A stretch of 64,000 bases of DNA, taken from Candidatus Doudnabacteria bacterium (GTDB taxonomy: Bacteria; Patescibacteriota; Doudnabacteria; UBA920). The stretch covers positions 793,078 to 857,077 of the forward strand of contig CAWINB010000004.1 in NCBI GenBank assembly GCA_963837465.1. Reading direction: 5' to 3'. Within the stretch, counting starts at the first letter, position 1. Each line of letters begins with the position of its first letter. Shown in pieces: positions 1,474-35,102 of the stretch. The translations under genes were made by a program, and so were the position numbers. Below the pieces are notes generated by a model. It saw only the letters and a list, made by a program, of their open reading frames with translations. It did not search any database and was not told the origin of the DNA.

Positions 1474-1560
1474 TTTACGAAGTACGAACAGGTACGAACG
1501 TACGAATCGGGTTCCTTTCGTAAGTTCGTAAGCATTCGTACTTCGTAAAATCTTCGTAAA
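1474..1560. repeat. P1 palindromic intergenic element copy 1 (TTTACGAAGTACGAA...TTCGTACTTCGTAAA)
   Basis: Long imperfect hairpin; homologous copies at 31607, 32303 (degenerate) and 35022. Confidence 0.6.
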
Positions 1561-1565
1561 ATACC

Positions 1566-2522
1566 ATGACTCTAAAATCACAAAAAATAATCTGCTGCTT
1601 ACTTATTGCCCTGGTGGTGGTCGGGGGCTTTGAGGCGCTGATTTATATTTTAAATTTAAACCAGCCCGCTATCTATTTACAGACGGCTTTTTGGATTTTT
1701 GCCTATCTGGTTTTTGAAATAGTTTTTTTGCATGATCTGCACGTTAAAACTTCCGGCCATTTAAGCCGCGCGCGCTTAGAACACGCCCGGGTTAAGCAAA
1801 AACCGCTCCGCTTTATAAAAGTTTTGGGCTCGGCTTTTTACGGTCGTTTTCATCATTTGCGGAAATGGGGTTATATAAAACAATGGCTGGGCTTTTTGCT
1901 GCTGCCGAGTTTTATTTTTTGGTCCACTATTTCCCTGTTTTACGTTAACTTTGGCGATGTAAAAGTCCAGCAGCTTTTGGCCCTGTTTTCCAGCCTGGCT
2001 TTGATTCTGGACTATTGGTTTTTAAAGGAAGCGTTCCTCCGCGGCAGGGAAGTGGCGGACAATGATATTTTTGTGGTCCTGTCCATGATAAAAATTTACG
2101 CCGCGGCCATGCTCTACGCCGCGGCCTTATCCATTTTGCGCTACTATTGTTTAAACCCCTGGTATTTTACCGCCGAGGTTTTTTGTTTTACCTTCCTGCT
2201 TGTTTACCAGGCGCTTTACCACCATCGCCGCGCCGGCATAAAAAATATTTCCGTGGCCCTGGGCATTGCCGCCATAATGGCCGCGGCCGGGTTTATGGTC
2301 TACATTTGGTGGGGTTATAATTATTTCACGGCGGCCGTGTTTTTGGCCGCGCTTTATAATTTAATGTGGGGAGTTTTCCATTACCGCCTGGATAAGGCCC
2401 TGACCTGGCACGCTTTTTGGGAAATTTTACTGGTCAGCATTATTGTTTCCGGTATGGTTTTCAGCGTCACCAACTTTAAGGCCAGGATTTCGGACGAATG
2501 CCAGTATTATCTTGACTTTTGA
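1566..2522 (+). CDS. Polytopic integral membrane protein, function unknown
   Basis: 318-aa ORF with ~9 hydrophobic helices; no recognisable catalytic motif. Confidence 0.55.
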   Translation: MTLKSQKIICCLLIALVVVGGFEALIYILNLNQPAIYLQTAFWIFAYLVFEIVFLHDLHVKTSGHLSRARLEHARVKQKPLRFIKVLGSAFYGRFHHLRKWGYIKQWLGFLLLPSFIFWSTISLFYVNFGDVKVQQLLALFSSLALILDYWFLKEAFLRGREVADNDIFVVLSMIKIYAAAMLYAAALSILRYYCLNPWYFTAEVFCFTFLLVYQALYHHRRAGIKNISVALGIAAIMAAAGFMVYIWWGYNYFTAAVFLAALYNLMWGVFHYRLDKALTWHAFWEILLVSIIVSGMVFSVTNFKARISDECQYYLDF

Positions 2523-2550
2523 TTTTAGTACGGCCACGTTTTAGCCTAAA

Positions 2551-2585
2551 CAAGGGCGCCCCTTTGCTGCAAAGGGGCGCCCTTG
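2551..2585. terminator. GC-rich hairpin between convergent genes (bidirectional terminator)
   Basis: caagggcgcccctttgctgcaaaggggcgcccttg, perfect stem. Confidence 0.55.
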
Positions 2586-2611
2586 CGCGCGGCTGATGCC
2601 TAAAAACCTAT

Positions 2612-3688
2612 TTAAAACCAGTACAAAAACGCCACCACAATAATCGAAATTCCCAGCATCACCAGGTTGTTGGTTTTTTTATCCAGGGAGCCGAGTTTGT
2701 TTTCCAGAATTTTTTTGGCGTCAGAAAGCATTAGCGCCAAAAGCAGGGCGCCGCAAATTAAAATCAGGTAGCGGTTGGCTTGGTAATTGTCAAAAGCGCT
2801 TTCGTCCTCCGCGCCAACTACTGCCGAAGCCGAAGAAGTTTGGCTTGCCTGAGCCGGCGTTTGTTCGGCCGAGCCCGCGGCTTGGGTTGATAAAGCGAAA
2901 TTTTGCTCCTGGTTTGGGGCCGCCTGGCTTGATAATCCGCCGCGAATCGGAATGGGTAGGGCGGTGATAGTTTGGGATGCCTGGCCGATTGCCGGCTGCG
3001 GTATGCCTGAAGCTTGAACTTGGCTGGCTTGTAACGGTTGTGGCGAAGCAGCGTGAGCGGCTGCCGCGGCCGCGACATGGGACGGAAGTTTTTGGGCCGG
3101 TGGTTTAGACGCCGAGGCGACCAGAGCAGCCGGGACTTTAAGCTGAGCTATAGGCGCCAGCGTGCCAAAGGTATTGGTAATGGCGGAATAATATTGTCCC
3201 TGCGCCACATTGCCAAAGGTTAAGCCCATGCCCTGGTCCACAAAACCCGCGTTTAAAATATTGGCGCGATGTTCCGGGCTGTTCATCCAGGCATTTATTA
3301 AACTGTCGGTATCGTAAAACTCAATGGCCAGGTTTTCTCCCAATCGCAAATACGGAGTGTAGCCGTCGGCAACTATGGTATCCCAGATATAGTGCCCTCC
3401 CGGGTCCACATGCGAAAAATAATGGCGGGCTTGCATATCATCGCTCTTGGTCTGCGCGGCTTTAGTCAGTATAGCGTTGGTGTTTAAAGTGGTTAAATCT
3501 CTTAACTGTCTTTGGTTGTTAATGGCTTCCAGGATATTTAGGGTAGTTAAATCCGAAGCCTGAGTGGCATGATTTGGTAAAAATAAGGTGATTAAAACTT
3601 TAACAGCCAAAAAAACTACAACCAAAAGCCCAAAAAGTTTGGTTTTAAAAAAATGATAGTGGATCCTAAAACTGTAGTTTTCGTTCAT
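2612..3688 (-). CDS. Membrane-anchored CAP/SCP (YkwD-like) domain protein with Ala/Gln/Pro/Ser-rich linker
   Basis: HYFSHVDPGGH...NAWMNSPEHRANILN CAP-domain motifs; N-terminal TM helix; low-complexity AQASQ region. Confidence 0.7.
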   Translation of the reverse strand: MNENYSFRIHYHFFKTKLFGLLVVVFLAVKVLITLFLPNHATQASDLTTLNILEAINNQRQLRDLTTLNTNAILTKAAQTKSDDMQARHYFSHVDPGGHYIWDTIVADGYTPYLRLGENLAIEFYDTDSLINAWMNSPEHRANILNAGFVDQGMGLTFGNVAQGQYYSAITNTFGTLAPIAQLKVPAALVASASKPPAQKLPSHVAAAAAAHAASPQPLQASQVQASGIPQPAIGQASQTITALPIPIRGGLSSQAAPNQEQNFALSTQAAGSAEQTPAQASQTSSASAVVGAEDESAFDNYQANRYLILICGALLLALMLSDAKKILENKLGSLDKKTNNLVMLGISIIVVAFLYWF

Positions 3689-3731
3689 ATTTTGCCTATT
3701 AACAAGCCTATATTAACATCTTTTGTTTAAC

Positions 3732-3760
3732 TTGACAAATAGTGATTTATATGATACAAT
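3732..3760 (+). promoter_or_regulatory. Sigma70-like promoter TTGACA-17nt-TACAAT
   Basis: Near-consensus boxes ~45 nt upstream of the sortase start. Confidence 0.5.
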
Positions 3761-3805
3761 CTTAAGTTAATGTTTTTTTAAATTCACTGGTTTAGTATAA
3801 CCACA

Positions 3806-5134: not shown

Positions 5135-5251
5135 TTCGCCGCAGCTTTTAATGTTTTTTTCAGACTCACCTATAACAATGCTACAATAAACTATAAAATA
5201 AGGACAATAAATACTTTTGCCTTTATTTATGAGAGTAAAATTGAGAGTTAC

Positions 5252-5280
5252 TTGACAAATCTCAATAAATAGGTTAATCT
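5252..5280 (+). promoter_or_regulatory. Candidate promoter TTGACA-17nt-TAATCT for the large surface protein gene
   Basis: -35 consensus; weaker -10. Confidence 0.4.
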
Positions 5281-5317
5281 GACAAGTTATTTAGGTTATT
5301 AAATCTCCACTACCATT

Positions 5318-8300
5318 ATGAATAAACTCACCTTCACCAAAAGCGGAAAATATTTATCATTTTTCAATTTCAGGATCGGTACTGTTATGGTGGCGATTTT
5401 GGCTATTTCCGTTGTTGGAATTATAGCGCCCCGCAAAGTTGATACTACAAAAGCTGAGGATTGCGCCGATGTTGAGCAAATTCCTACTGTGCCGACATTT
5501 GATCCATTTACCATTGTACCCCAGAATAGCGACGGCTCCTATACAAATACGGCGGGTTCCAATTGTGATGATTTCCCCGAACTGTCGGTTAAGGAATCCA
5601 CCACAGATAGCTATTTTCCTTCCATAAATGCCCAAAGCGGCGACCAGCTTGTTGTGAGCACTTACATCCACAACGGAGCCAGCCAGGATTTAGGCACCCA
5701 GGACGAGGCTTTTAATATCCAGGCTAATTATAATGTTGATACTACTTCCGGTACCAGCCACAACATAACTGTAACGTTAACAGGACAGAATATCAACGGG
5801 AGCCAGATGCAGCCAAAGTCGGAAACGATTACCATAAATACTCCGGCCGGCGCGCAGATTCAGGTAGTTCCGGGCACGGGAGTAATTGAAGATAATAATT
5901 CCAACCCGACCGGTTCGGCCGCGGTAAGCAATGGAAATTTTACGGTTAATTTGGGCAACCAAATGGCTTGTTTTGATTTCGCCCGTTTCTTTAACTTTAC
6001 GGTGCAGGTTGTGGGCGGACAGGCGGCCTCAACCCCTCCCACTGGTACCATTTCCGCTAATTTGGGCGGACAGGTTGGCGGACAGTGTCTTTTGAACGCT
6101 ACCGTTAACTGGTCCACGCAGAATGCCGGCCAGGTTTTGGTAACTGTCAGCAATCCCAATTTAAATTCCAATAATTATTACGACAACGACACAATTTTTT
6201 CCGAAAATCCCCAGGGACCGGCCAACGCTTCCTGGATAACGCCCAATACCAGCTATCGTTTTACTTTATGGGCTGTTGTGCCCAGCGGTACTTCCGGATC
6301 CGCCCAACAGACATTTTTTGTCAGCGGCGGCAGCACCCAAAGTTTTAATGTCATTGAACTTTATGAAACCTGGATTACCGGCGGATCTTTAAACTGCGGA
6401 ACCACTCCTCCTCCGCCCGCCAATACGCCGCAAAGTTTTAGTGTATCTATAACTCCCGGTACGGTTTGTGTCGGCTCGCAATCCAACGTTGTTATTTCCA
6501 ACGCCACCTCAGGCTTAAACGGCGATGAAATTTTCTGGACCTCCACTTTAAACGGCAATACTACCGGCGAAAATATGTCTGGATACGGCCAGTATGTAAC
6601 CAACGGCGGCTTTAACGCCTCAACAAATGCCTGGACCAGCAGTGAAATTGGCACTTGGGTTAAGACCGCGACTATTGGCGGCGTTTCCGTAAGCGCTCCC
6701 GCTTTTGTTGTCCAAAATTGTTCCCAACCCACCCCGCCCGTCCCCCAGAGCTTTAATTTGTCCATAACCTCCGCTTGCGTTAACCAACAGTCTACTGTGA
6801 ATATTTCCAACGCCACCTCAGGCTTAAATGGCGATGAAATTTTCTGGACATCTAGCTTAAACGGCAATCCTACAGGTGAAAATTTGTCCGGGTATAACCA
6901 ATATGTAACCAACGGCGGCTTTAACGGTCCTACCAGCACCTGGACCGCGGCGGAAGCCGGATCGTGGACTAAAATCGCGACCATTGGCAATACCACGGAA
7001 ACCGCTTACTTTAATGTTTATCCTTTAAGCGACACGGCTGATTGCGGCGGCGGGCAGGCGCAAACTTTTACTGCCACAGCCTCGGCCTCCGCCACAGCCT
7101 CGGCCAGTTGTTCCAACGGAACTTCCGCCTCCGCCACAGCTTCCGCCTCTGCTACAGCCACCAGTTCCATTAGCCAGCAGGACGCGCAAAACAAAGCCCA
7201 GGCTAATGCTCAGTCGCAAGCCCAGGCTAATGCTCAGGCTAATGCCAGCGCCTCTTGTCCGGCTTCATCTCCGGCGCAGTTAACTTGCAGCGCCAATCAG
7301 ACTTCTGTTCCCTTAGGCAGCCCCGCAACCTTTAATGCTTCCGGCGGCACCGCTCCTTACACCTGGACCGCGGCCGGCGGTGATTCCGCTACCGGCAATC
7401 CTTTTATTGTTAACTTTGCTTCCGCCGGCAGCAAAACTGTCAGCGTCAGCGATAGTAGAGGAGTAGCAACTACTTGCGGCGTGACTGTCACGTCCTCAAA
7501 CGTCTGTACCGTAAACAGCAACTATGCTTTAAACTCTTCAGCTCCGGTTAAAAACGGCTCTACTTATTCGGTCGCTCTGAATTGGTCTTCCACCGGCAGC
7601 AATCAAATCAAACTCACCGAAGTAAATGGCTCCGGGGAAACCACTTTAACCACCGGTTCCGGCAGCGGCAGCTTTACGGTTACCGGACTTGCCCCGGGCA
7701 CCAGCTATATCTTTAAAATTTATGATGCTTCGTGCGGCAACTTCTTAACATCCGCCCAAGTTACCATACCTGCCAACCCGGGCCAGCTAAGCTGCGGCGC
7801 CAACGTCTCTTCCGCCAATATTGGCGACACAGTTATTTTTACCGCCCAGGGCGGCAACGGAGTTTACACCTGGGCTACCAGCAACAACAGCGATGCCGGT
7901 AACGGCAGCCAGCTTAACGTTAACTTCCAGTCCGCCGGCAACAAGAGCGTAACTTTAAGCGACAGCGCCGGAGACGCGCCGGCTACTTGCGGCGTGGTGA
8001 TTGCCGCTCCTGCCCAAACCCAAAGCACTGGTAACTGCGACAACGATTCCAGTTCCTGTAACAACAATACTAACACCAATAACGATACCAGCTCCGGCAC
8101 CAACAGCTCCAACCAGAATAACAACAACAATGTCAACGGCAACAACAACACCATTACCAACAGCAACGAGAATTGCGTTAATAATTCCTGCGATACTACC
8201 AACACCACCAACAACGTTGTCTATATAAACAGCGCCGGCAGCGTTGTTCCGGCCAATCAGTTCAGCCAGCTCTCTGTAACCAAAATGGTTAGCGCAAACG

Positions 8301-9178: not shown

Positions 9179-9191
9179 ATACTCAAATCAA

Positions 9192-9489: not shown

Positions 9490-9528
9490 ACTCCGCGGCA
9501 GCTATTTTCACAGTAACTTTCATCCGCT

Positions 9529-10710: not shown

Positions 10711-10721
10711 ATTTATCAAAC

Positions 10722-10796
10722 CGCCTAGTTTAGGCGGGGCGGTTTTTGCTTGAGTCGCGAGTGTCAAGGGTGACCCTTGACACTCGCGACTCAAAA
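10722..10796 (+). terminator. Tandem hairpins after galE, including a perfect 22-bp-arm palindrome
   Basis: ccgcctagtttaggcgg...ggcggttttt, then ttgagtcgcgagtgtcaagggt-g-acccttgacactcgcgactcaa. Confidence 0.55.
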
Positions 10797-10891
10797 TTAA
10801 AATCAGGTATTTAAAAGTCCCGGAGTTTTATTTAAGTTTTCCGAATAGTTCCAGTATGTTATAATCAAAATATCAAAATTAAAATATTCTA

Positions 10892-15627: not shown

Positions 15628-16233
15628 ATGAATATTTTGCCTGAAGCAAGCTATAAAAAGACCACGCAGGTATTGAATTTTTTTGCCCAAAAAAAAGACG
15701 GCAAGATAAATAGGATGAAGGCTATTAAGCTGGTGTATCTTGCCGATCGTTTGCATTTACGCAAGTATGGCCGTCCTATTGTCGGCGATATTTATTGGGC
15801 GATGAAATTGGGCCCTGTTGGCTAACGCGCGAAAGATGCCGCCGAACTTGCGGATATACCGCCGGGTGTTTTTAGTTATGTAAAAAAATATATTCAGCCT
15901 GTCGACGGGAAAAAACAGATTTTTTCTTCCCTAAAATCCCCGGATTTGGATATTTTTTCAAAAACAGACATAGAATGTTTGGAAGCGGTTTTTGCCAAGT
16001 TTTCCGACAAAGACCAATTTGAACTCGCGGATTACACCCACACTTTAAACGAATGGCTCAAACATAAAAAAGAATTGGATAGCGGGAAAAAAAGAGTTAG
16101 GATGGATTACGACGATTTTTTTACGGATAGTCCAAAAGAAGACGATTTTTTTTCCGAAAATAAAACGGACTTATCTTTATCCAAAGAATCTTTTGATGAA
16201 TTAAAAGGAGTCCTGGAATTTTTTGCGAAATAA
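15628..16233 (+). pseudogene. Panacea (DUF4065/SocA-like) antitoxin-domain gene interrupted by an in-frame TAA at 15823-15825
   Basis: ORFs 15628..15825 and 15946..16233 share a frame and are separated by one stop; KLVYLADRLHLRKYGRPIVGDIYWAMKLGPV is the Panacea core. Confidence 0.55.
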
Positions 16234-16245
16234 TTTTTAAATCCA

Positions 16246-16689
16246 ATGGAAATACCCCCTAAAGTCAGAATTCCATTGCGCGTTGAGCAGGGTTCCGTCT
16301 TTATTTTTTACATCGATTTTGGAGACGCGAAAAGACAGTCAAAGAATCGCTATTTTGTAGTTCTAAGTCAGGAGCCGAAGACTGATACCGCTTTGACTAT
16401 GGTTACCTCTACAACGCAAATATCAAAAAAGTTCGAGTACGTAACCAGGATGGGTATTAGCGAAAAAACGATTGTAGAAATTACAGCCAAAGAATACTCC
16501 GTGTTTGGTTCCAGTAGCTGTTTTAATTGTAATGACGTTTTTGAGGTAAGTTTGAGAGATTTGATCCGCAAAGTTGAAGAAAACGGCTCGGATAATTATC
16601 CCAAAATGCCGTCTCATTTACTTTTAAAACTTATAGATGGGGTAAAAACAAGCCCTCGTGTTCCGGAGGAGTTAAAAAAGATGATCTAA
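16246..16689 (+). CDS. MazF/PemK-fold toxin-like protein, candidate toxin partner of the upstream Panacea gene
   Basis: QGSVFIFYIDFGDAKRQSKNRYFVVLSQEP...MVTSTTQ parallels MazF GDLIWVDFDP...RPAVVLS...VPCTTQ. Confidence 0.5.
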   Translation: MEIPPKVRIPLRVEQGSVFIFYIDFGDAKRQSKNRYFVVLSQEPKTDTALTMVTSTTQISKKFEYVTRMGISEKTIVEITAKEYSVFGSSSCFNCNDVFEVSLRDLIRKVEENGSDNYPKMPSHLLLKLIDGVKTSPRVPEELKKMI

Positions 16690-16899
16690 AAAATTATCGA
16701 TAATCAAAGCTGTTTTTTTCTAAGAAGATGTTTAAAAAGTGCTTTGTAGGCGAAATTACAGAATTTTGCGCGGATTGACGGAAACAAATTTTGACGTTTA
16801 GCCTAAAGCTAAGCGGAAAAATTTTTTCCGGCAAGGCGCCAAACATTCTGGAATTGCGGCCCAAATGACTTTTTAAACAGCTTCTAAGCGAAAAAGCTA

Positions 16900-19116: not shown

Positions 19117-19155
19117 CAAAACCGCCCTTGAATTAGAGTTACGGGCGGTTTTTTG
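19117..19155 (+). terminator. Rho-independent terminator
   Basis: aaaaccgccc...gggcggtttttt. Confidence 0.65.
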
Positions 19156-19196
19156 TTATAATACGGGGACTTCCCCGCGTTTAAATTTAACTTATC

Positions 19197-21922: not shown

Positions 21923-22969
21923 ATGCCAAAAGTCACCGTCATCCAGGTTATTTATAACAACCGCCGGTTTATCGAGCCGGTATTTTCGGCTGTCTTTAAT
22001 CAAAGTTATAAAGATATTAACGTCGTGGCGGTTATCGCGGGAAACGATGACGGCGGCAAAGAATTATTGGCCGAAAAATTCCCCCAGGTGGAAATTATTG
22101 ACCCGGGCTTTAACATCGGCTTTTCCGCCGGGCATAATTTGGTTTTTGACAAATGCGGCAACCTCACCCCCTCCCTCTCCTCAAAAGGAGAGGGAGCGTC
22201 TGAATTTTTCCAGTTGGTCAACCCGGATATGGTTATGGACCCGACCTACATTGAAAATATTTTAAAAGCTTTTGACGACCCCAAAGTCGGCGCGGCAACG
22301 GGAAAGTTGTATCAGGTTGATCGCGATGCCATCGTAGACACAAGGGGAATCCTTTTGATGCAAAAGGATTCCCCTTGTGTCCTGGACACGACCGGAGTTG
22401 TGATTTCCAAATCCGGACGCGCGAGGGACCGGGGACAACATGAGGTTGATAACGGACAATATGACCGATTAACATCAGTTCAGGCTGTTTCCGCCGCCGG
22501 GGCAATGTATCGGAAGACGGCCTTGCAAGCTGTCAGCTGTCAGCTGTCAGCTGACAGATCTTCCCGCGAGTACTTTGATCAGGACTTTCACAGTTACTGG
22601 GAAGACGTAGATTTAACCTGGAGGATGTCCAACGCCGGCTGGAAAAATATTTTTGTCCCGTCCGCGGTTGCTTATCACGGCAGGGGAGCGGCGGCATCGG
22701 AAAACGGCTACGCCGATGTTCTAGGTTTCATCAGCCACCACAAAAAATTGTCTCCCCGCGTCCGGAAGCTAAACTACCAAAACCACATTTTTATGTACAT
22801 AAAAAACTCGCCCTATTTTTACCCCCATTTTTTTGTCCGGGAATTTTTTATGTTTTTTTATATCCTGTTTTTTGAAACCGGCACTTTAAAAGTTTTACCG
22901 CGAATGTTTAAATTATTGCCAAAGATGTGGATGAAAAGAAAATTAATTCAAAGTTCTGTGTCGCCCTGA
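21923..22969 (+). CDS. GT2 glycosyltransferase
   Basis: TVIQVIYNN...D.D GT-A signature; contains an in-frame hairpin insert at 22171-22196 and a heptamer SSR at 22528. Confidence 0.75.
   Translation: MPKVTVIQVIYNNRRFIEPVFSAVFNQSYKDINVVAVIAGNDDGGKELLAEKFPQVEIIDPGFNIGFSAGHNLVFDKCGNLTPSLSSKGEGASEFFQLVNPDMVMDPTYIENILKAFDDPKVGAATGKLYQVDRDAIVDTRGILLMQKDSPCVLDTTGVVISKSGRARDRGQHEVDNGQYDRLTSVQAVSAAGAMYRKTALQAVSCQLSADRSSREYFDQDFHSYWEDVDLTWRMSNAGWKNIFVPSAVAYHGRGAAASENGYADVLGFISHHKKLSPRVRKLNYQNHIFMYIKNSPYFYPHFFVREFFMFFYILFFETGTLKVLPRMFKLLPKMWMKRKLIQSSVSP
22528..22555. repeat. Heptanucleotide SSR AGCTGTC x3 + AGCTGAC inside the GT2 CDS
   Basis: Direct reading; the unit length is not a multiple of three. 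Confidence 0.8.
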
Positions 22970-23390: not shown

Positions 23391-24368
23391 ATGCCTTTAG
23401 TCAATAAGCAGATTGATTTATCAATCGTCATCCTCTCCTACAAATCCAAATCCCACCTGGAGGTTTTACTGCCGAGTGTTTTCGATAGTTTTGGGGTTGA
23501 TTTTTCAACTCCAAAACTATCGTCCGACGAAGCCTTGGCGAAGTCGGATGGGGATCGGGCGGCCAAGGCTCGCCCCTACACCGCCGAAATAATCATAGTA
23601 GACAACGACTCTCGCGACGGAACCGCGGAATGGATAAAAGCGGAATTCTGTGATTTTGACGGCCGTCAAAATCACAGAATGGTTTCCTTGATCGAGAATT
23701 CCAACAATGGTTTTTCCAAAGGAAATAATCTTGGAATAAAACAGGCCTCCGGCAAATATATTTTGCTGCTTAATCCCGACACCAGGCTTGAGCCCGGAAC
23801 TTTAAAAACTATGCTGGATTTTATGGACAGCCGGCCGGATGTCGGGATTTCCGGATGCAAACTTATTAAAGCCGACGGCAAGCTGGATGTAGCCTGCCGC
23901 AGAAGGTTTCCAAACCCATCCAATAGTTTTAAACGGCTGTTCCTGATGGACCGCATAGACTATAATTATTCCGATATCGATCAAGATAAGGAAATGGAAG
24001 TAGACAGCGTGGTCGGCGCGTTTATGCTTATCCGAAAATTAGCCCTGGATAAAACCGGCCTCTTGGACGAAATTTTTTTTATGTACGGTGAAGATTTGGA
24101 TTTGTGCTGGCGCTGCGAGGAAGCGGGGTTTAAAGTCTGGTATTATCCCAAAACTTTTATCCATCATTACAAAGGCGAGTCCAGCCGCAAAACGCCGTTT
24201 AAATCGTTAAAAGATTTCCATAACGCCATGTGGATTTTTTACAAAAAGCATTACGCTAAAAATTACTTCGTAATTTTTAATTGGCTGGTATGGTTGGGAA
24301 TTTATGCGCGGCTGGCCGTCTTGGTGATTATCAATAAATTCAAAGCCAATCCCAGTGTCAGCAAATAG
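23391..24368 (+). CDS. GT2 glycosyltransferase (rhamnosyltransferase-like) with in-frame palindromic inserts
   Basis: IVILSYKS...IIVDNDSRDGT...GFSKGNN GT2 motifs; extra segment DSFGVDFSTPKLSSDEALAKSDGDRAAKARP. Confidence 0.75.
   Translation: MPLVNKQIDLSIVILSYKSKSHLEVLLPSVFDSFGVDFSTPKLSSDEALAKSDGDRAAKARPYTAEIIIVDNDSRDGTAEWIKAEFCDFDGRQNHRMVSLIENSNNGFSKGNNLGIKQASGKYILLLNPDTRLEPGTLKTMLDFMDSRPDVGISGCKLIKADGKLDVACRRRFPNPSNSFKRLFLMDRIDYNYSDIDQDKEMEVDSVVGAFMLIRKLALDKTGLLDEIFFMYGEDLDLCWRCEEAGFKVWYYPKTFIHHYKGESSRKTPFKSLKDFHNAMWIFYKKHYAKNYFVIFNWLVWLGIYARLAVLVIINKFKANPSVSK
23645..23680. repeat. 36-bp perfect palindrome attctgtgattttgACGGCCGTcaaaatcacagaat, in frame within the GT2 CDS (P3 family)
   Basis: Direct reading; encodes EFCDFDGRQNHRM; related copies at 56846 and 60780 share the ACGGCCGT centre. 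Confidence 0.8.
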
Positions 24369-27801: not shown

Positions 27802-27804
27802 GTT

Positions 27805-28056
27805 ATGTTTACAAGAGAGCATGCAAAATTACCAAGAAACCCTGAGACCTATCCTGTGAAATTGGATATTGTGCCTTCCTTGGTAAATGACGAAAGAGAT
27901 CTCCGTGAACATTTAAATATGGGCAACAGGGTGGTGTTCGCAGGCTATGAATCTCCTCAGAGAGAAATTAAAATACTAGTAGGCACACAGGTTCATGCCG
28001 ACTTGGAAGCTGAACTGGGCTTGCCCACTTACCCCCCCCCCTTACTGGTAGCATAA
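27805..28056 (+). CDS. Hypothetical protein in an AT-rich, atypical-codon segment; the ORF is probably longer (to 28200) after correcting the C10 tract
   Basis: 83-aa ORF ends just after a C10 run; the +1 frame stays open to a TGA overlapping the next gene's ATG. Confidence 0.4.
   Translation: MFTREHAKLPRNPETYPVKLDIVPSLVNDERDLREHLNMGNRVVFAGYESPQREIKILVGTQVHADLEAELGLPTYPPPLLVA
28032..28041. repeat. C10 homopolymeric tract
   Basis: Direct reading. Confidence 0.9.
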
Positions 28057-28198
28057 CAATTGACAGAGAAGGAGTTTTAAAATGGAGCGATAATATAGAT
28101 TACTACTTTCAACAAATCGGAATTGATGACCAAAAAGCAAGAGAGTCTTTAAAAAATTCCACAATTGATAGAATTAAAAGAATTTTAGGTTTGATTAA

Positions 28199-29365: not shown

Positions 29366-29434
29366 TTGACGCTCAAAATCAGCCGTATTACAATGGTTTT
29401 GAATAAGGAGTCAGGAATTATGAATTATGGATGG

Positions 29435-29469
29435 GAATTCCTAATTCCTAATTCCTAATTCCTAATTCC
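29435..29469. repeat. Heptamer tandem repeat (G/T)AATTCC x5 ending 5 nt before the start codon
   Basis: gaattcc taattcc taattcc taattcc taattcc, then agctaATG. Confidence 0.85.
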
Positions 29470-29474
29470 AGCTA

Positions 29475-31241
29475 ATGACCGTTCCCAGTGTTTACATAAA
29501 TTTGGAAGATGACGTTTCAAGAGTAGTGACACGGCTTGGCCATCAGTCGGCGCGGCAGGTTGTTTTGGTCTGCCCCAAGCGCTGTTTTCTGTTCAGCGAC
29601 AGCATTAATTTGCGCCTGCTTAAAAAACAGACAGACATGCTTGGCAAGGAAGTTTTTATTTTGACCATGGATGAACGGGGCCAGCTTTACGCCAAGGAAG
29701 CGGGGTTTGGGCTTAAATTTTTACCAAAAAACGGCGGCTCCAGAGTTATGTCGGATGTTCGGATGCCCCAAAAACCTGTAGTCGCGGCCGCATCGGACGA
29801 GCCCTGGGAAGTTGTCGGACCGGAAAAAGACGGGGCTGTATCAGGCTCTTTGGGCGCGATTGCCGGTAACGAGGAGGCCGTTACCCAACAATCCATGCTA
29901 TTGCCTGAAGCGGCTTTGCCCAAAGAGCCGGCGGTTTCTTTGCCAGCTGTCGCGGAGCCATTGTCCCAAACTCAGTCCGATCCTGATATTCCGGTGGCGG
30001 TGACCGAAAGTTTTTTCCCGGCGGAAATTCAGGAAGAGTATAAAGACCAGCCAAAAAAATCCCATTCTTCAAAAATTATTTCGGCCATTGTGGCTTTGTC
30101 TCTAATCTTAATTTTGCTTTTGGTTTTCGTGGTGCTGCCCAAAGCCGAAGTAATTGTTTACCCCAAGGCCGAAGCGCTTACCCGGGATATGGACATAACT
30201 ATCAGCGCCAACGCCACAGGTATTGATCCGCAAAAGCTGGTAATTCCGGCGACTAAGGTAGATGACACCATAAGTGTTTCCGATAACTTTACCAGCCAGG
30301 GAAAAATGCAGGTCGGCAATAAGGCCGAAGGCACGGTCCAGATTTATAATTTCACCCGCCTGCCCATTAACTTAAAAGCCGCTACCACCGTGCTTATGGT
30401 CGGCAGCCAGACTTATAACCTGGTTAACGATGTCGTGGATTTAAAGCCCACCGAATATAAAGATGCTCTTACCAAAGAAGTGGATCCAAACAGTCTGGGC
30501 GCGCCCATAGAAATCATAGCCACGCGGGGCGGGGATGATTATAATTTACCGGCGGGGACGCGGCTGGAAATTACCAACCAGGTGTTCGGCAGCAAGCCGC
30601 AGCTGCTTTACGCCAAAAGCTTTACGGACATTGACGGCGGCACCACCCGTTATCTTTCGCTTATTTCACAGGACGATATCGCCGGCGCGCAAAAACAATT
30701 GCAGGCCGAGGCGCTTGCCCAGGAGCGGCAAAAGCTCCAGGCCCAGGGGTTGGTTTTGGCCGATGGCGCGTATTCGGAAACTGCCGGCCAGTTTTCCGCC
30801 GATAATCCGGTGGGCACCCAGACCCCGAGTTTTAACGCCAGTTCAACCGCGCGGATCACGGGCCTGGCTTTTAAGCAAACCGATCTGAACACTACGGTTT
30901 ACCAGCGCATCAGCCAAAGCCTGAGTTCCGACCAGACTTTGCAAACCGGCAATTCCGCCCAAATTACCTACGTAGTTAATAACCTGGATCTAACCAACGG
31001 GATGGCGGTTTTATCCACCCATTTCCAGGGCGAAGGCGTCTTTGATGTAAATGTCTCCAACCTCGCGCCGGAACTCACAGGCAAAAGCCAAAGCCAGGTT
31101 AATGAAATACTAAGTTCGCGGGCGGAAATAGACAGTGTGCAGATTACCCTCGCGCCGGCCTGGCAGAAAAATTTTCCCCTGTTCGCAAGCAAAATAAATC
31201 TAAGCGTCGCCTCTGCTACCCCGATATCCGGTTCCAATTAG
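29475..31241 (+). CDS. Hypothetical protein with a single TM anchor and a large extracytoplasmic domain
   Basis: 588 aa; TM at IISAIVALSLILILLLVFVVL; no recognisable domains. Confidence 0.6.
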   Translation: MTVPSVYINLEDDVSRVVTRLGHQSARQVVLVCPKRCFLFSDSINLRLLKKQTDMLGKEVFILTMDERGQLYAKEAGFGLKFLPKNGGSRVMSDVRMPQKPVVAAASDEPWEVVGPEKDGAVSGSLGAIAGNEEAVTQQSMLLPEAALPKEPAVSLPAVAEPLSQTQSDPDIPVAVTESFFPAEIQEEYKDQPKKSHSSKIISAIVALSLILILLLVFVVLPKAEVIVYPKAEALTRDMDITISANATGIDPQKLVIPATKVDDTISVSDNFTSQGKMQVGNKAEGTVQIYNFTRLPINLKAATTVLMVGSQTYNLVNDVVDLKPTEYKDALTKEVDPNSLGAPIEIIATRGGDDYNLPAGTRLEITNQVFGSKPQLLYAKSFTDIDGGTTRYLSLISQDDIAGAQKQLQAEALAQERQKLQAQGLVLADGAYSETAGQFSADNPVGTQTPSFNASSTARITGLAFKQTDLNTTVYQRISQSLSSDQTLQTGNSAQITYVVNNLDLTNGMAVLSTHFQGEGVFDVNVSNLAPELTGKSQSQVNEILSSRAEIDSVQITLAPAWQKNFPLFASKINLSVASATPISGSN

Positions 31242-31349
31242 CTTTATTTAAGCTCATTTTGGCAAAATCAAAGGCTTAAGTATTTTTTGAGTTGACAACT
31301 ATCGCGGAGTTATGTTAAACTTTTGCAAGATAATTCAAATTAAATCAGT

Positions 31350-31604
31350 TTGATCTCCAGTAATCAAGACTCAGGGAAGTCACGACAAAATAAGAAAGAT
31401 GTCATTGAACTTGAGGGCAAAGTTATAGAAAATTTGCCTAATGCTATTTTTCGCGTCCAACTTGATTCGGGGCAGATAGTTTTGGGCCATTTGGCCGGAA
31501 AAATGCGGGTTAATATGATTCGCGTTATGCCCGGGGACAAAGTCCTGATTGAAATGACCCCGTATGATTTAACCAAAGGCAGGATAACCAGGAGAATGAG
31601 GTAG
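31350..31604 (+). CDS. infA: Translation initiation factor IF-1
   Basis: [38 protein letters not shown]...ITRRMR. Confidence 0.85.
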
Positions 31605-31606
31605 AG

Positions 31607-31687
31607 TTTACGAAGTACGAATATTTACGAACTTACAAAAAGGTTCGCTTATCGTTCGTACGTTCGTAAATATTCGTACTTCGTAAA
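31607..31687. repeat. P1 palindromic element copy 2 (perfect 26-bp stem)
   Basis: tttacgaagtacgaatatttacgaac...gttcgtaaatattcgtacttcgtaaa. Confidence 0.7.
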
Positions 31688-31693
31688 ATATAT

Positions 31694-31807
31694 ATGAAAG
31701 TCAAAGCTTCAGTAAAACCCAGGTGCAAGAAATGCAAAATCGTCAGACGCTTCGGACGTGTTTATGTTATTTGCGTAATCCCCAAGCATAAGCAACGCCA
31801 AGGATAG
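31694..31807 (+). CDS. rpmJ: Ribosomal protein L36 (not in ORF track, below 60 aa)
   Basis: [37 protein letters not shown]. Confidence 0.85.
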
Positions 31808-31810
31808 TGC

Positions 31811-31911
31811 AATTGACAAGATTGACATAATTTAAAAAATTGACAAAATTAAAGCTGTGTCCTAATTATGTCAATTATGTCAATTTTATTTAATTTTGTT
31901 CAATAAACTTT
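31811..31911 (+). promoter_or_regulatory. Promoter/leader cassette A (TTGACA boxes, inverted TGTCAAT repeats, conserved leader ending at the rpsM ATG)
   Basis: ~95-nt near-identity to 62514..62606. Confidence 0.55.
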
Positions 31912-32301
31912 ATGGCCAGAATCGCCGGAATAAATTTACCCAACGAAAAACGCGTCGAAGCGGCATTGCCCTATATTTACGGCGTGGGTTTAAGTTTGTC
32001 AAAAAAAATTCTCGCTTCGGCCAGCGTGGATCCCGACAAGCGCAGCAAAGACTTAACGGAGCCCGAGTTAAACCGCATCCGCGAATATATTGAAAAGCAC
32101 TTTAAAGTGGAAGGCGAGCTCAGGCAGCAGGTTTTACTCAACATCAAGCGCCTTAAGGAAATTGGTTCCTACCGCGGCATCCGCCATATAAAAGGCTTGC
32201 CGGTCCGTGGCCAGCGCACCAAAACCAACTCCCGCACCCGCCGCGGCAACGTGCGCAAAACCGCGGGCAGCGGCCGCAAGAACGCTTCGGAAAAGACCTA
32301 G
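31912..32301 (+). CDS. rpsM: Ribosomal protein S13
   Basis: [10 protein letters not shown]...[17 protein letters not shown]. Confidence 0.95.
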
Positions 32302-32302
32302 C

Positions 32303-32384
32303 TTCACGAAATACGAACAGGCGCGAACTCACAAGCTTCGCTTATCGATGATTCATATATTCGTAAATATTCGCGCTTCGCAAA
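32303..32384. repeat. P1 element, degenerate copy 3
   Basis: cacgaaatacgaacaggcgcgaac...ttcgtaaatattcgcgcttcg. Confidence 0.4.
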
Positions 32385-32404
32385 TTCTGTAAACTCTATT
32401 ATTT

Positions 32405-32875
32405 ATGGCAGAAGAAACCACAACTGAAACCCAGACGGAAAATTTGCCAAAAGTTTCGGCGACCGAAGCCGTTGTTGGCGATGCCCAGGGTCCTAAAATC
32501 AAGTCCAGGAAGAAAAAGGCCAAGGTCAAGGTTACCAAAGGTAAAATTTACATCAATTCCACTTACAACAATACCATTGTTTCCGCTACGGATATGTCCG
32601 GCAATGTTTTAATCTGGTCAACGGCCGGCAAGAACGGTTTCAAAGGTTCCAAAAAATCCACTCCTTACGCCGGACAGCGGACTATGGAAGATGTTCTGGC
32701 ACGTCTGCGCGAAAGGGGATTGGCGGAGGTTGACGTTTTGATCAAAGGCATAGGCAGCGGCCGCGAGTCTGCCGTCAGAGCGCTTCAGGGCAGCGGTTTA
32801 AGCGTGCTGTCCATTAAAGACCAGACACCCATCCCGCACGGCGGCGTCAGACCCAAGAAACCGCGGCGCGTCTAA
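32405..32875 (+). CDS. rpsK: Ribosomal protein S11 with an N-terminal extension
   Basis: GKIYINSTYNNTIVSATD...GFKGSKKSTPYAGQ. Confidence 0.9.
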   Translation: MAEETTTETQTENLPKVSATEAVVGDAQGPKIKSRKKKAKVKVTKGKIYINSTYNNTIVSATDMSGNVLIWSTAGKNGFKGSKKSTPYAGQRTMEDVLARLRERGLAEVDVLIKGIGSGRESAVRALQGSGLSVLSIKDQTPIPHGGVRPKKPRRV

Positions 32876-32880
32876 TCCGC

Positions 32881-32960
32881 AGTTAAAAGTTATCAAGTTG
32901 CAAGTTATAAAGTAACCGCAACTCATACTTGATAACTTTCTACTTTTAACTTTATAACTA
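32881..32960 (+). promoter_or_regulatory. Nested inverted repeats in the rpsK-rpsD intergenic region (structured leader)
   Basis: aaaagttatcaag/cttgataactttt, gttaaaagt/acttttaac, agttataaagt/actttataact. Confidence 0.4.
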
Positions 32961-32964
32961 ATTT

Positions 32965-33573
32965 ATGAGATACACCGGACCAAAAGTAAAAAAAGCCAGA
33001 CGGCTTGGCATGGCCTTTACGGCCAAAGACGCCAAAATTTTGCAAAAGCGGGGTTTCCCGCCTGGCCAGCACGGCCAGAACCGGGTCAGGCTTTCCGAAT
33101 ACGGGACCCAGTTGCGCGAAAAGCAGAAAGCCAAAATCGCCTACGGAGTTATGGAAAGGCAGTTTGAAATTTATTTCAACAAGGCCTTGAAGCAGCCCGG
33201 CGTTACCGGCGATAATCTGCTCAAGCTTTTGGAAATGAGGCTGGACAACATTGTTTACCGTCTGGGTTTTGCCGAAACCCGCGCCCAGTCGCGGCAGCTG
33301 GTCAATCACGGTTTTTTTGAGGTCAACGGCAAAAAAGTCGACATTCCTTCTTACCAGGTCCGCTCCGGGGACTTAGTCGCCATCAGGGCTGTCAAGCAAA
33401 AAAAAGCCTACCTGGAAAAAATCAGGGAAAAGTTAAAGAATTTTAAAACCATGGACTGGCTGGAATTAAACGGCGGCAAGTTTTCCGGAAAAGTTTTAAG
33501 CTCGCCGCTGGTTGAAGGTCTTGAAAGCAATATCAACACCCAGCTTATAGTTGAGCATTACAGCAGAACATAA
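32965..33573 (+). CDS. rpsD: Ribosomal protein S4
   Basis: MRYTGPKVKKARRLG... Confidence 0.95.
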   Translation: MRYTGPKVKKARRLGMAFTAKDAKILQKRGFPPGQHGQNRVRLSEYGTQLREKQKAKIAYGVMERQFEIYFNKALKQPGVTGDNLLKLLEMRLDNIVYRLGFAETRAQSRQLVNHGFFEVNGKKVDIPSYQVRSGDLVAIRAVKQKKAYLEKIREKLKNFKTMDWLELNGGKFSGKVLSSPLVEGLESNINTQLIVEHYSRT

Positions 33574-33584
33574 TTAATAATAAT

Positions 33585-33647
33585 ATCCTTTATCCTTTAT
33601 CTTTAATCTTTTACCGGTTAAAGATTAAGGATTAAAGATAAAGGATT
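33585..33647. repeat. Heptamer run (ATCCTTT ATCCTTT ATCTTTA ATCTTTT) that is also the left arm of a palindrome around ACCGGT
   Basis: Direct reading in the rpsD-rpoA intergenic region. Confidence 0.6.
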
Positions 33648-33655
33648 CATCTATT

Positions 33656-34594
33656 ATGGAAGCCATCCCTCTGCCAAATCACGCCCATGTTACGGACCTG
33701 GGCGACAATAAATATAGTCTGGTTTTAGAGCCCCTTTATCCGGGTTATGGTGTTACTATTGGCAACGCCATGCGCAGGGTACTGCTTTCTTCCATGCCCG
33801 GCGCGGCAGTAACTTCCGTAAAAATTAAGTTCGTGGACCACGAATTTTCCACCATCCCCAATGTTAAGGAAGATGTCATTCAGATTATCCTGAACTTAAA
33901 ACAGCTTCGCCTGCAGAGTTTTAGCGGCGAGCCGGTTAAGCTGTCGTTAAAAGCAAAGGGAGAAAAAGTAGTGACCGCGGCCGACATAAAAGAAACCGAT
34001 CAAGTCCAGGTTATAAACAAAGGTTTGCATATTGCCACTTTGGACAACAAAAATTCCGATTTTGATATGGAGCTGACGATTGAACAGGGTCGCGGCTACG
34101 TGCCGGTTGAAGCCCGGGAAAACCGCAAGCAGGAAGTCGGCGTTATTGCCATAGACGCGATTTTTACTCCGGTAAAATCCGTCCATTTTGATGTTACCAA
34201 CGTCCGCGTGGGGCAACTGACCAACTTTGACCGTTTGGAAGTTGTTATGGAAACGGACGGCGGGTTAACCGGCCAGGAAGCGTCCGACATTGCCGCGCAC
34301 ATTTTGGTTGACCATTTCAGCATGGTTTTCCTTGGCGGTTTTGGCGCCGCGGAAACTCCAAAGCAAGCCGAGCAATCCGTTCCGGAAGCCCAGGCGCCGG
34401 AGGCCGCGCAAGTGGCCGGTCAGGAAAATGAAATAGAAGCTTCCGCCCTTTCCACCCGCGCCAAGAACGCGCTGGTAAAAAATAATATTACGACCATGGC
34501 CCAGCTTTCCGCCCTTACCAATGATCAGATTTCCAACTTAGGCGGCCTGGGAGATAAGACAATTAAGGAAATTACGGAATTTTTAGGAAGATAG
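33656..34594 (+). CDS. rpoA: DNA-directed RNA polymerase subunit alpha
   Basis: N-terminal dimerisation domain and C-terminal alpha-CTD (ALSTRAKNAL..). Confidence 0.95.
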   Translation: MEAIPLPNHAHVTDLGDNKYSLVLEPLYPGYGVTIGNAMRRVLLSSMPGAAVTSVKIKFVDHEFSTIPNVKEDVIQIILNLKQLRLQSFSGEPVKLSLKAKGEKVVTAADIKETDQVQVINKGLHIATLDNKNSDFDMELTIEQGRGYVPVEARENRKQEVGVIAIDAIFTPVKSVHFDVTNVRVGQLTNFDRLEVVMETDGGLTGQEASDIAAHILVDHFSMVFLGGFGAAETPKQAEQSVPEAQAPEAAQVAGQENEIEASALSTRAKNALVKNNITTMAQLSALTNDQISNLGGLGDKTIKEITEFLGR

Positions 34595-34602
34595 GTAACG
34601 GC

Positions 34603-34672
34603 TAATCAGTAAATCAGCTAATCAGTAATCAGTACTGATATGCTGACCAGCTGATTCGCTGACCAGCTGACA
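34603..34672. repeat. Tandem repeats (TAATCAG-like heptamers, then GCTGACCAGCTGA x2) between rpoA and rplQ
   Basis: Direct reading. Confidence 0.55.
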
Positions 34673-34675
34673 CAT

Positions 34676-35020
34676 ATGAGGCACAAAAAGAAGAAAAAAA
34701 TCGGCAAAGGCAATGACCACAGAAGGAAGCTTCTTCGGACTTTGGCTTCGTCCCTGATTTTATACGAGAAAATCCGGACCGGCTACGCCAACGGTAAAGC
34801 CGCGAAAAGTTATACTGAAAAAGCCATCACCATTTCCAAAACCGGCACGCTCCACGCCCGCAGACAGCTTTTATCCAAGCTTTCGCCAATGGCCGCCAAA
34901 AAAGCCATGGAGGTTTTGGGCCCAAAGTACATCGACCGCAAGGGCGGCTACACCAGACTGCTTAAGCTTAATAATCCCAAGGCCGGAGCATCCAAAGTGC
35001 TGTTAGAATTAGTAGAATAA
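34676..35020 (+). CDS. rplQ: Ribosomal protein L17
   Basis: MRHKKKKKIGKGNDHRRKLLR... Confidence 0.9.
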   Translation: MRHKKKKKIGKGNDHRRKLLRTLASSLILYEKIRTGYANGKAAKSYTEKAITISKTGTLHARRQLLSKLSPMAAKKAMEVLGPKYIDRKGGYTRLLKLNNPKAGASKVLLELVE

Positions 35021-35021
35021 A

Positions 35022-35102
35022 TTTACGAAGTACGAAATCAGTACGAACTTACGAATGGTTCGCATCCGATTCGTAAGTTCGTAAAAATTCGTACTTCGTA
35101 AA
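35022..35102. repeat. P1 palindromic element copy 4
   Basis: tttacgaagtacgaaatcagtacgaacttacgaa...ttcgtaagttcgtaaaaattcgtacttcgtaaa. Confidence 0.7.

Follow-up and report, generated by a model that had tools for sequence, protein, structure and literature searches.

P1, a dispersed palindromic repeat at operon-internal gene boundaries of Candidatus Doudnabacteria

Four P1 copies and the architecture of the element

The window analysed here is a stretch of 64,000 nucleotides from a Candidatus Doudnabacteria bacterium (GenBank assembly GCA_963837465.1, contig CAWINB010000004.1, positions 793,078 to 857,077, forward strand), which includes a ribosomal-protein gene cluster running from infA to rpsI. 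A preliminary description of this sequence had pointed to four copies of a palindromic intergenic element, P1, one of them behind an rmlA-like gene and the others at the infA/rpmJ, rpsM/rpsK and rplQ/rplM junctions. These gene assignments are backed by Pfam, and all four positions hold up (Table 1): a covariance model trained on 45 members of the family and run over the 64 kb with filters off returned exactly these sites and none besides, everything else scoring 21 bits or less.

That the four copies merely reflect chance similarity, private local duplications or an assembly artefact has a negligible probability. Three of them do lie within 3.5 kb of each other and share loop sequence, but the arm matches in the window number 8 versus 1.9 expected by chance, the observed total of 10 was equalled by no shuffle, and covariance scores reach 87 bits. 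Moreover, P1 recurs in several species, in assemblies made independently, and in numerous metagenomes (see below).

Each copy had been described as a hairpin of about 80 nt with a stem of 15-26 bp. This is true of copies 1, 2 and 4, whose folds range from -38.4 to -42.9 kcal/mol and whose terminal 15-mers, TTTACGAAGTACGAA / TTCGTACTTCGTAAA, are exact in both arms; copy 2 indeed has the perfect stem ascribed to it, with 26 uninterrupted pairs in the fold. The typical build is 15 bp, a 4x4 internal loop and 14 bp. Copy 3, rightly called degenerate, has 2-3 mismatches in each terminal arm, folds no better than shuffled sequences and has an apical-loop sequence, GCTTCGCTTATCG, in common with copies 2 and 4. 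Two details had to be amended. Copy 1, given as 1474-1560, starts where it was said to start, but its core stops at 1549; the remainder (1550-1560) is a tandem re-duplication of the last 10-11 nt of the copy, which is missing from the orthologous copy in Doudnabacteria MAG_CO250 (L001; loci outside the window are designated by L numbers). The common ending proposed for the copies, '...cgtaaaNtatatATG', is present in two of the four and absent from the other two.

Throughout the family, P1 follows the layout TTTACGAAGTACGAA / 3-5 nt / TACGAAC-K-TACGAA / apical loop of 0-28 nt / TTCGTA-M-GTTCGTA / 3-5 nt / TTCGTACTTCGTAAA. Each arm is made of four KTACGAA units, spaced 7, 10-11 and 8 nt, and the number of units is fixed. 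The conserved unit runs 2 nt beyond each arm (of 41 copies, 36 have A at -2 and 32 have T at +2), which gives the consensus start A-N-TTTACGAAGTACGAA; the termini, TTTACGAAG/CTTCGTAAA, form perfect inverted repeats of 15-17 nt. The element measures about 70-95 nt and comprises two sequence-invariant helices of 15 bp and 14 bp, with 33-42% G+C in the stems, while its internal and apical loops are highly variable.

Over 29 stem pairs in 45 aligned copies, 96% of the cells are Watson-Crick and 12 of the pairs are invariant. Covariation is negligible and, as the stems do not vary, lends the hairpin essentially no support. The K/M position is unpaired in 27 of the 45 copies. Outside copy 3, the mismatched cells comprise 4 G-U versus 6 A-C, which are too few and show no bias.

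The loops give the palindrome a polarity. When the copies are oriented by their neighbouring genes, 23 have YRGG in the 5' internal loop and AAWN in the 3' one, and 4 have the mirror pattern. P1 is used asymmetrically, and the asymmetry tracks either transcription or the replication strand, which are not separable here; genes of the Candidate Phyla Radiation (CPR) are co-oriented with replication. The two states of the K/M position, (G,A) and (T,C), were also tried as a marker of orientation and rejected: they split 9 versus 9 by gene direction and are independent variants of one T-A pair.

Distribution, dispersal and conservation in place

P1 is represented by about 45 canonical copies, which come from Candidatus Doudnabacteria (at least four genomes), from a single bin labelled Saccharibacteria and from some 22 metagenome contigs. 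Exact arms 20-50 nt apart occur at 15 loci of the GTDB species set, and exact arms with an interior of 30-60 nt on 24 metagenome contigs; the interior allowed in the genome scan, N{20,50}, would overlook copies 2 and 4 (51 nt), and that of the metagenome scan was N{30,60}. A fuzzy search of all fetched sequence gave 50 matches, of which about 45 were canonical. The preliminary description had left room for copies confined to this one stretch; P1 clearly occurs beyond it, in several species as well as in metagenomes.

At the Rfam gathering threshold only RNase P passes in the window, with no match for P1, and at permissive thresholds the region 31200-35700 returned only sub-threshold microRNA-precursor models, i.e. 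generic long-hairpin noise. Full-text literature searches did not find a description of P1 either. The earlier remark that no known family could be recognised in these hairpins agrees with both results: P1 is a real dispersed family, undescribed in Rfam and in the searchable literature. The exact-arm pattern had no match in viral contigs of IMG/VR, and phages were rejected as vectors of P1 on this ground.

Three loci, L004 (Foetidibacter luteolus), L032 and L036, were excluded from the family, as their arms are GTACGAA heptamers and their interiors are unrelated to P1. The tandem GTACGAA/TTACGAA heptamer arms of these look-alikes, one of which resides in a Bacteroidota genome, are identical to the P1 terminus; they may be convergent arrays or a distant relative of P1. 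The Saccharibacteria-labelled bin (L003) and L018 hold a P1 variant with a mutated inner helix, TACTAATGTACGAA. The L003 copy is located 3' of a 717-aa ribonucleotide reductase gene in a metagenome-assembled genome (MAG) assigned to another CPR phylum, which reflects either horizontal spread or mis-binning.

Several observations bear on how P1 reached its sites. The copies L016 and L038 are 95% identical, a figure that covers both internal loops, the apical loop as well as roughly 10 nt of tail to either side, while their flanking genes are unrelated. The copies L002 (by the RRF gene, MAG_CO250) and L006 (by the NrdR gene, palsa_1336), which occupy different junctions, have one loop subtype in common and are likewise nearly identical in their stems and loops. 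The closest relatives of a copy are copies of the same operon: window copies 2-4 share GGTTCGCTTATCG-like loops, and within L015 the copy at L015:808 pairs by loop subtype with L015:2968, and L015:5343 with L015:6883. The orthologous alpha operons of seven other loci are devoid of P1, including those of the P1-bearing MAG_CO250 and palsa_1336, and several P1-equivalent junctions of L046/L047 are just 6-25 nt long. The rplQ/rplM spacer, for instance, is TTTATT (6 nt) in L047, 24 nt in L046 and A+P1+CTATAT in the window. Filled and empty junctions were compared by length only, since the nearest other S4 homologues (the named ones from Candidatus Doudnabacteria or the 'Patescibacteria group') are only 86% identical to the window S4, which makes a base-by-base alignment of the flanks impossible. 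Because near-identical copies stand at unrelated loci and relatives have short spacers, we regard P1 as inserted, copy-pasted DNA.

The preliminary description likened P1 to mobile hairpins of the repetitive extragenic palindrome (REP) or miniature inverted-repeat transposable element (MITE) type and advised a check for target-site duplications. None was found at any offset: no direct repeat of 2-5 nt emerged at 36 offset combinations, the best being 7 of 41 (dinucleotides). The absence of direct repeats rules out the usual DDE-type MITE mechanism and fits single-strand/HUH-type transposition or a recombinational route. P1 was thus rejected as a classical MITE, as it has terminal inverted repeats but no target-site duplications, and no transposase was seen in the window or among the proteins scanned beside P1 elsewhere. 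In the approximately 320 kb of fetched sequence, no lone arms bounding a longer parent element were seen. What stands of the likeness is a dispersed family with copies at unrelated loci and empty junctions in relatives.

Once in place, P1 hardly changes. In six orthologous pairs of P1 junctions (two species each), the stems differ at 3 of 336 positions and the inner helix, which lay outside any search pattern, at 2 of 156, while identity at third-codon positions in the neighbouring genes is 37-58% and the loops are for the most part divergent. The junction of copy 1, which is also P1-bearing in MAG_CO250 (L001), shows 0/56 stem differences with every loop different. True orthology was shown by shared loop features in three of the six pairs. 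At L24/L5, the 3'-arm variant TTCGTAATTCGTAAA is common to both species, with a compensating 5'-arm change in bin-7426 (L008). The stem divergence at the six junctions is far below any neutral expectation. As the sequence, and not merely the pairing, is kept, something would seem to read the KTACGAA helices. According to these comparisons, P1 originated as a mobile element, and the sequence of its resident copies is strongly constrained.

A purely selfish element, MITE- or REPIN-like (REPIN, REP doublet forming a hairpin) and without any host role, for which stop/start junctions are simply the only tolerated sites in a compact genome, would account for much of this. The copy-paste evidence, the empty or short junctions in relatives, the decay of copy 3 and the local spread of loop subfamilies are all in line with it, and the residual spacers (both flanks summed, median about 10 nt) resemble ordinary operon spacers. 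The invariance of the stems would then be due to insertions that are recent or recurrent, to palindrome correction from one arm to the other and to conversion between copies; correction within an element is suggested by the TA-to-CG change in two units of copy 3 and by the arms of L015:1549, which were altered together. However, stem differences of 0.9% at six orthologous junctions contrast with near-saturated loops and third-codon positions, and at least three of the six pairs are, by their loop features, true orthologues and not re-insertions. Unbiased arm-to-arm correction would yield covariation, which is almost absent, and the identical tracts of 7-15 nt are short for RecA-type conversion. 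In addition, the window has much larger intergenic regions with promoters, which the insertions avoid. We consider a wholly selfish P1 rather unlikely.

Alternatively, the units might be read in the DNA. P1 would then be a protein-binding array of eight KTACGAA units, four direct and four inverted, whose hairpin potential is incidental and whose reader could be a ribbon-helix-helix-type heptad repressor, a nucleoid protein or a DNA-uptake receptor. Repressors that read heptads exist, e.g. omega of pSM19035, and such an array agrees with the conservation of sequence instead of pairing (the invariant pairs and the negligible covariation), with G-U being no more favoured than A-C and with the free variation of the spacers between units. 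On the other hand, the units are irregularly spaced, the sites are found inside operons between stop and start codons and not at promoters, and a symmetric DNA site would not be expected to show polarity relative to gene direction. Furthermore, pairing is preserved by the compensated changes in the arms, and the niche is shared with several unrelated families whose units differ (see below). Overall, an array acting at the DNA level is improbable.

Placement between cistrons and a possible role in mRNA

In about 40 copies with readable context, the stop codon of the upstream gene nearly always lies 0-7 nt ahead of the stem (median 2), and the ATG of a downstream gene on the same strand follows 2-16 nt past the stem in most (median about 7). 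Since stop and ATG abut both ends of the stem, P1 fills the whole intercistronic gap of co-directional genes. Many copies stand in operons for ribosomal proteins and translation factors. Several copies may be present in one operon, as in the S10 operons of MAG_CO250 and bin-7426 (Table 1); the L4/L23 copy of the former is a variant in which both arms are altered in concert.

Operon borders in the window are marked by promoters of the TTGACA/TGnTATAAT type and by canonical G+C-rich T-run terminators. The transcription unit with copies 2-4 likely runs from the promoter-like site upstream of infA (from 31292) to the terminator behind rpsI. On the sense strand of P1, a consensus scan revealed neither promoter nor terminator features; of the whole element, the terminator scan listed just the inner apical portion of copy 2, followed by a weak tail. 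In all four window copies, the stem is followed by aNtatat or ctN, with no T-run. Judging from these signals, P1 is almost certainly transcribed inside polycistronic mRNA.

This bears on the earlier suggestion that the hairpins attenuate or terminate transcription, splitting the ribosomal-protein clusters into separate units. Very stable hairpins directly 3' of stop codons would indeed be expected of terminators, but the stems are A+T-rich and lack a U-tract behind them, while canonical G+C-rich T-run terminators stand at the operon ends, including that of copies 2-4. No sense-strand promoter-like site follows P1, only 2-16 nt are left before the next ATG, and as many as five terminators would have to be placed inside one S10 operon. 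A terminator or attenuator function is therefore very improbable.

Shine-Dalgarno (SD)-like motifs precede 4 of the 48 genes in the window, the upstream regions of which are A/T-rich with about 10% G, and T occupies position -1 in 30 of them. Apparently, the P1-bearing lineage does without SD-led initiation. The scarcity of SD-like motifs is in line with published work in which about half of Parcubacteria are reported to lack the anti-SD motif in their 16S rRNA (PMC9297842).

P1 shares its niche with other hairpins. Between 29.4 and 35.1 kb, nearly every junction has a hairpin built of short repeats (z <= -3.8 in 8 of 10 junctions), the units of the sister families including AATTCCT, AATTGAC, AAGTTAT, ATCCTTT and CAGCTGA/AATCAG, and together with P1 such hairpins occupy almost every junction of the infA-rpsI cluster. 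In the S10 operon of MAG_CO250, all 13 junctions measure 55-110 nt and most carry P1 or a hairpin of another family. Further families are found at equivalent junctions in other species, with 2-3 copies per operon, and at least two non-P1 families, AATTGACA (tail TTTTATTTAATTTTGTTCAATAA) and AATTAAGTAAAATTAAATAAAATT, are shared between species at non-orthologous junctions. As L046/L047 show, hairpin-filled junctions are lineage-specific and not universal.

Members of the AATTGACA family contain several TTGACA (-35-like) boxes, and their 3' tail, TTTTATTTAATTTTGTTCAATAAnCTTT, ends at the ATG of rpsM and of secF; the family is conserved across species and may be a promoter-bearing module. One of its elements is overlapped by a sub-threshold match to Rfam Alpha_RBS (20.6 bits versus a gathering threshold of 38). 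The operon-local families of relatives, present in 2-3 copies per ribosomal-protein operon, are represented by AGAGAATAG...GTGCTTAGTGAATAGGA, CGCGGATC and AGATTGC units. The window also contains perfect palindromes that are G+C-richer than P1 and unrelated to it (18 bits or less with the P1 model), two of them just 3' of genes.

Based on these observations, we tentatively favour a view of P1 as a palindromic repeat of Candidatus Doudnabacteria that is non-autonomous, REPIN-like and possibly retained as an intercistronic RNA module, a function that we infer from its setting. It is filed as REPIN-like, and not as a REPIN, because no partner REP-associated tyrosine transposase (RAYT) was found in the sequence available and the GTAG motif is absent. 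P1 would move in the form of a folded single strand, on which a sequence-specific enzyme, either of the HUH/RAYT type or functionally similar to it, would act. Such handling of a single strand would explain the conserved arms, the free loops and the absence of duplications.

After transcription, P1 would form a very stable hairpin, the foot of which touches both the stop codon before it and the start codon after it. A ribosome that halts 0-5 nt ahead of the 15-bp helix would have to unwind much of it, and the 3' strand of the helix would end 2-10 nt before the ATG, where initiation without an SD should need single-stranded RNA. The hairpin would thus occlude the downstream initiation region until it is opened, either by a ribosome that finishes translating the upstream cistron (translational coupling) or by a double-strand RNase, e.g. 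RNase III. It might also shield the upstream segment from 3' exonucleases. Occlusion or shielding would give the host a reason for keeping P1. By analogy with other systems, translational coupling, RNase III-type processing and segmental stabilisation are plausible as host-level effects, and a role in mRNA processing or translation would be compatible with the position of P1, its orientation bias and its in-situ conservation. With regard to RNase III, P1 offers the structural prerequisite only, i.e. at least about 20 bp of coaxial double-stranded RNA, in which an internal loop often directs cleavage (15 bp, 4x4 loop, 14 bp in P1); no rnc gene lies within the 64-kb window. Mimicry of rRNA (e.g. 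of the sarcin-ricin loop) was dropped from consideration, as it rested on a 7-mer.

Several points weigh against a retained, REPIN-like RNA module. The stems carry no RNA-specific signal, G-U and A-C being equally rare and covariation nearly nil, and the polarity could stem from the replication strand and not from transcription. No single copy is essential: copy 3 has decayed, and relatives lack a hairpin at the same junctions. Pfam detected no RAYT, HUH or other transposase domain (Y1_Tnp included) among about 60 window proteins, and no transposase among about 60 P1-flanking proteins elsewhere, 20 of which were searched singly and the rest among the top 25 families listed. P1 also lacks the REP-type GTAG/CTAC, its consensus containing GTAC instead. 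At least 5-6 other hairpin families fill the same niche in genomes of about 0.9 Mb, which is hard to reconcile with one enzyme per family. Finally, the outer arms were ascertained by an exact-match pattern.

The preferred reading can be extended to a bolder picture, which we think unlikely. In it, some SD-less Doudnabacteria would punctuate their essential operons with families of mobile hairpins of conserved sequence, one at nearly all cistron boundaries, and a dedicated trans-acting reader or the terminating ribosome would open or cut the hairpins, thereby coupling or metering the next cistron. If true, such hairpin punctuation would be a bacterial counterpart of the intercistronic processing of T7 and chloroplasts, built from domesticated replicators.

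The window has some further features. A class A RNase P RNA (101.7 bits versus a gathering threshold of 100) is located in the 709-nt gap after the SIMPL gene. Two genes, SIMPL/DUF541 and Cu-oxidase_4 (polyphenol oxidase-like), appear to be split into overlapping open reading frames (ORFs), which are frameshifts, pseudogenes or sequencing errors. A likely toxin-antitoxin pair consists of a SocA/Panacea-like fragment followed by a weak PemK/MazF-like match, with a 406-nt gap before it and a structured gap of 210 nt, bearing 34-nt inverted arms, after it.

Table 1. Coordinates of P1 copies, related hairpins and other features in the window and in the compared loci
Feature	Coordinates	Strand	Neighbours or context	Remarks
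P1 copy 1	1472..1551, core 1474-1549	+	NTP_transferase (RmlA-like) gene 759-1472; 318-aa gene 1566-2522, unknown protein (Pfam)	conserved A at -2, T at +2; fold -38.4 kcal/mol, z -6.9; covariance model 86.9 bits
Tandem re-duplication of copy 1 3' terminus, TTCGTAAAAT (TTCGTAAAATC / TTCGTAAAATA)	1550..1560	+		from sequence
P1 copy 2	31605..31689, core 31607-31687	+	infA 31350-31604; rpmJ 31694-31807 (Pfam IF-1, L36)	continuous 26-bp stem; fold -40.2 kcal/mol, z -8.6; covariance model 86.7 bits
P1 copy 3, decayed	32303..32384	+	rpsM 31912-32301; rpsK 32405-32875 (Pfam S13, S11)	z +0.5; covariance model 44.7 bits
P1 copy 4	35020..35104, core 35022-35102	+	rplQ 34676-35020; rplM 35109-35519 (Pfam L17, L13)	fold -42.9 kcal/mol, z -9.5; covariance model 87 bits
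Promoter-like site TTGACA-18-TAAACT	31292..31321	+	upstream of infA	consensus scan only
Canonical intrinsic terminator	36200..36225	+	after rpsI	G+C-rich stem and T-run
Other canonical terminators	within 10711-10891; 19120-19196; 49134-49197		operon ends	G+C-rich, T-run
Five P1 in S10 operon, MAG_CO250 (L015)			L3/L4, L4/L23, L2/S19, L16/L29, L24/L5	
Three P1 in S10 operon, bin-7426 (L008)			S10/L3, L16/L29, L24/L5	
P1 in other contexts			S2/Tsf; adjoining RRF, RF, Pth, KsgA genes; NrdR/NrdA; DprA; UvrD	
P1 sites in the GTDB set			MAG_CO250 at least 10; palsa_1336 3; bin-7426 1; putative Saccharibacteria bin 1; look-alike Foetidibacter luteolus 1	exact-arm pattern
P1 variant with mutated inner helix	L003:3866-3931; L018:4545-4610			
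Heptamer-armed look-alikes	L004:4876-4980; L032:7192-7285; L036:905-935 + 2289-2371			
Non-P1 repeat-built hairpins	29401-29468; 31811-31887; 32881-32958; 33585-33646; 34591-34677; 42398-42484; 50338-50477		intergenic	units of about 7 nt
AATTGACA family	31808-31911; 62521-62606; L015:4071-4176; L045:2842-2933; L047:2634-2740			
Alpha_RBS match, sub-threshold	31841-31944			
Operon-local hairpins of relatives	L015:6469-6557, 7521-7609; L045:2633-2727, 5668-5757; L041:514-591, 3139-3225, 3646-3722			
Tandem heptamers (TAATCCC)x4	~53883-53911		start 53916, a few nt on	
Tandem heptamers (AATTCCT)x4-5	29437-29468		start 29475, a few nt on	
Perfect palindromes	10750-10794; 22337-22381; 23645-23680; 60780-60821			18-22 bp, loops 0-3 nt
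RNase P RNA class A	37676-38086	-		
Split SIMPL/DUF541 ORFs	36758-37018 / 36991-37536			
Split Cu-oxidase_4 ORFs	60029-60463 / 60409-60780			
Likely toxin-antitoxin pair	15946-16689			
Inverted arms behind the pair	16713-16746; 16862-16895			

P1 among known repeat systems

Genomes of the CPR/Patescibacteria are among the smallest and most streamlined, and the usual description has them poor in repeats and mobile DNA. In several Doudnabacteria, 80-110 nt are given over to a hairpin at the majority of gene boundaries in the ribosomal-protein operons. Should these hairpins be retained replicators, they would extend the 'persistent replicator' idea of REPINs to the CPR, possibly with a different enzyme; if they are active in mRNA, they would point to a balancing of operon expression in bacteria without SD-based initiation. 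In annotation, P1 elements mark operon-internal boundaries and could be mistaken for terminators or small RNAs.

The closest parallel is the REPIN-RAYT system. The RAYT, a Y1/HUH transposase, is encoded by a cognate single-copy gene in the same genome, usually flanked by the repeats, and recognition involves a conserved GTAG/CTAC tetranucleotide beside the REP palindrome. REPINs consist of two invariant inverted ends and a freer spacer and form a hairpin (PMC3116915). Those of Pseudomonas fluorescens and E. coli are, like P1, symmetric elements of about 70-110 nt with invariant inverted ends of about 15-16 nt (PMC3116915), a less conserved spacer and a long predicted hairpin, and they are extragenic, with dozens of copies per genome. 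They too show no target-site duplication, persist at orthologous sites and undergo occasional compensated changes. P1 differs from them in its arms of four KTACGAA units, its polarity relative to genes, the lack of a RAYT in the sequence available, its CPR host of about 0.9 Mb with sister families and its precise stop-to-start placement in essential operons. The streamlined, SD-less CPR genome, this placement and the several sister families are unusual for REP/REPIN/MITE-like repeats in general.

Other dispersed hairpins are known to act in mRNA. In enterobacteria, the hairpins of enterobacterial repetitive intergenic consensus sequences/intergenic repeat units (ERIC/IRU) are cut by RNase E or block it. 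Correia elements, the MITEs of Neisseria, are bound, cut or protected by RNase III (PMC2649163). Both are, like P1, short palindromic repeats with long hairpins, co-transcribed with the genes around them, and their cleavage or blocking alters mRNA stability. However, Correia elements have a TA target duplication and an IHF site and can create promoters, whereas P1 is shorter and has no duplication and no promoter-like ends on the sense strand. In E. coli, REPs located at most 15 nt from a stop codon are reported to stall the terminating ribosome and lower the expression of the upstream gene (PMC12306157, citing Liang et al. 2015). About 11-50% of E. coli REPs lie that close to a stop, in contrast to nearly all copies of P1, with a median of 2 nt. 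Unlike these REPs, P1 abuts the next start codon as well.

With respect to layout alone, two further systems come near to P1. The intercistronic RNase III sites of phage T7 have two helices with an internal loop between them and are carried on polycistronic mRNA, an arrangement much like the helices of P1, but they are not dispersed repeats. In integrons, genes alternate with attC hairpins, which have conserved ends and a variable centre. P1 resembles them in this gene-hairpin-gene-hairpin order, but it lacks the core sites (RYYYAAC/GTTRRRY) and is flanked by S10 and alpha operons of fixed order and not by cassettes.

Heptamer repeats form the last group. The short tandemly repeated repetitive sequences (STRR) of cyanobacteria are heptanucleotide repeats. 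Arrays of the heptamer TAACTGA in Beggiatoaceae, cyanobacteria and Bacteroidetes lie upstream of start codons in SD-poor contexts and were proposed to be post-transcriptional sites (PMC4679880). The tandem heptamer arrays of the window resemble these TAACTGA arrays. P1 shares with them units of about 7 nt, the position upstream of starts, the occurrence in ribosomal-protein operons and an unexplained cross-lineage spread. While TAACTGA arrays and STRR are contiguous direct repeats of variable number, P1 is a single inserted unit of fixed, inverted 4+4 units with irregular spacing.

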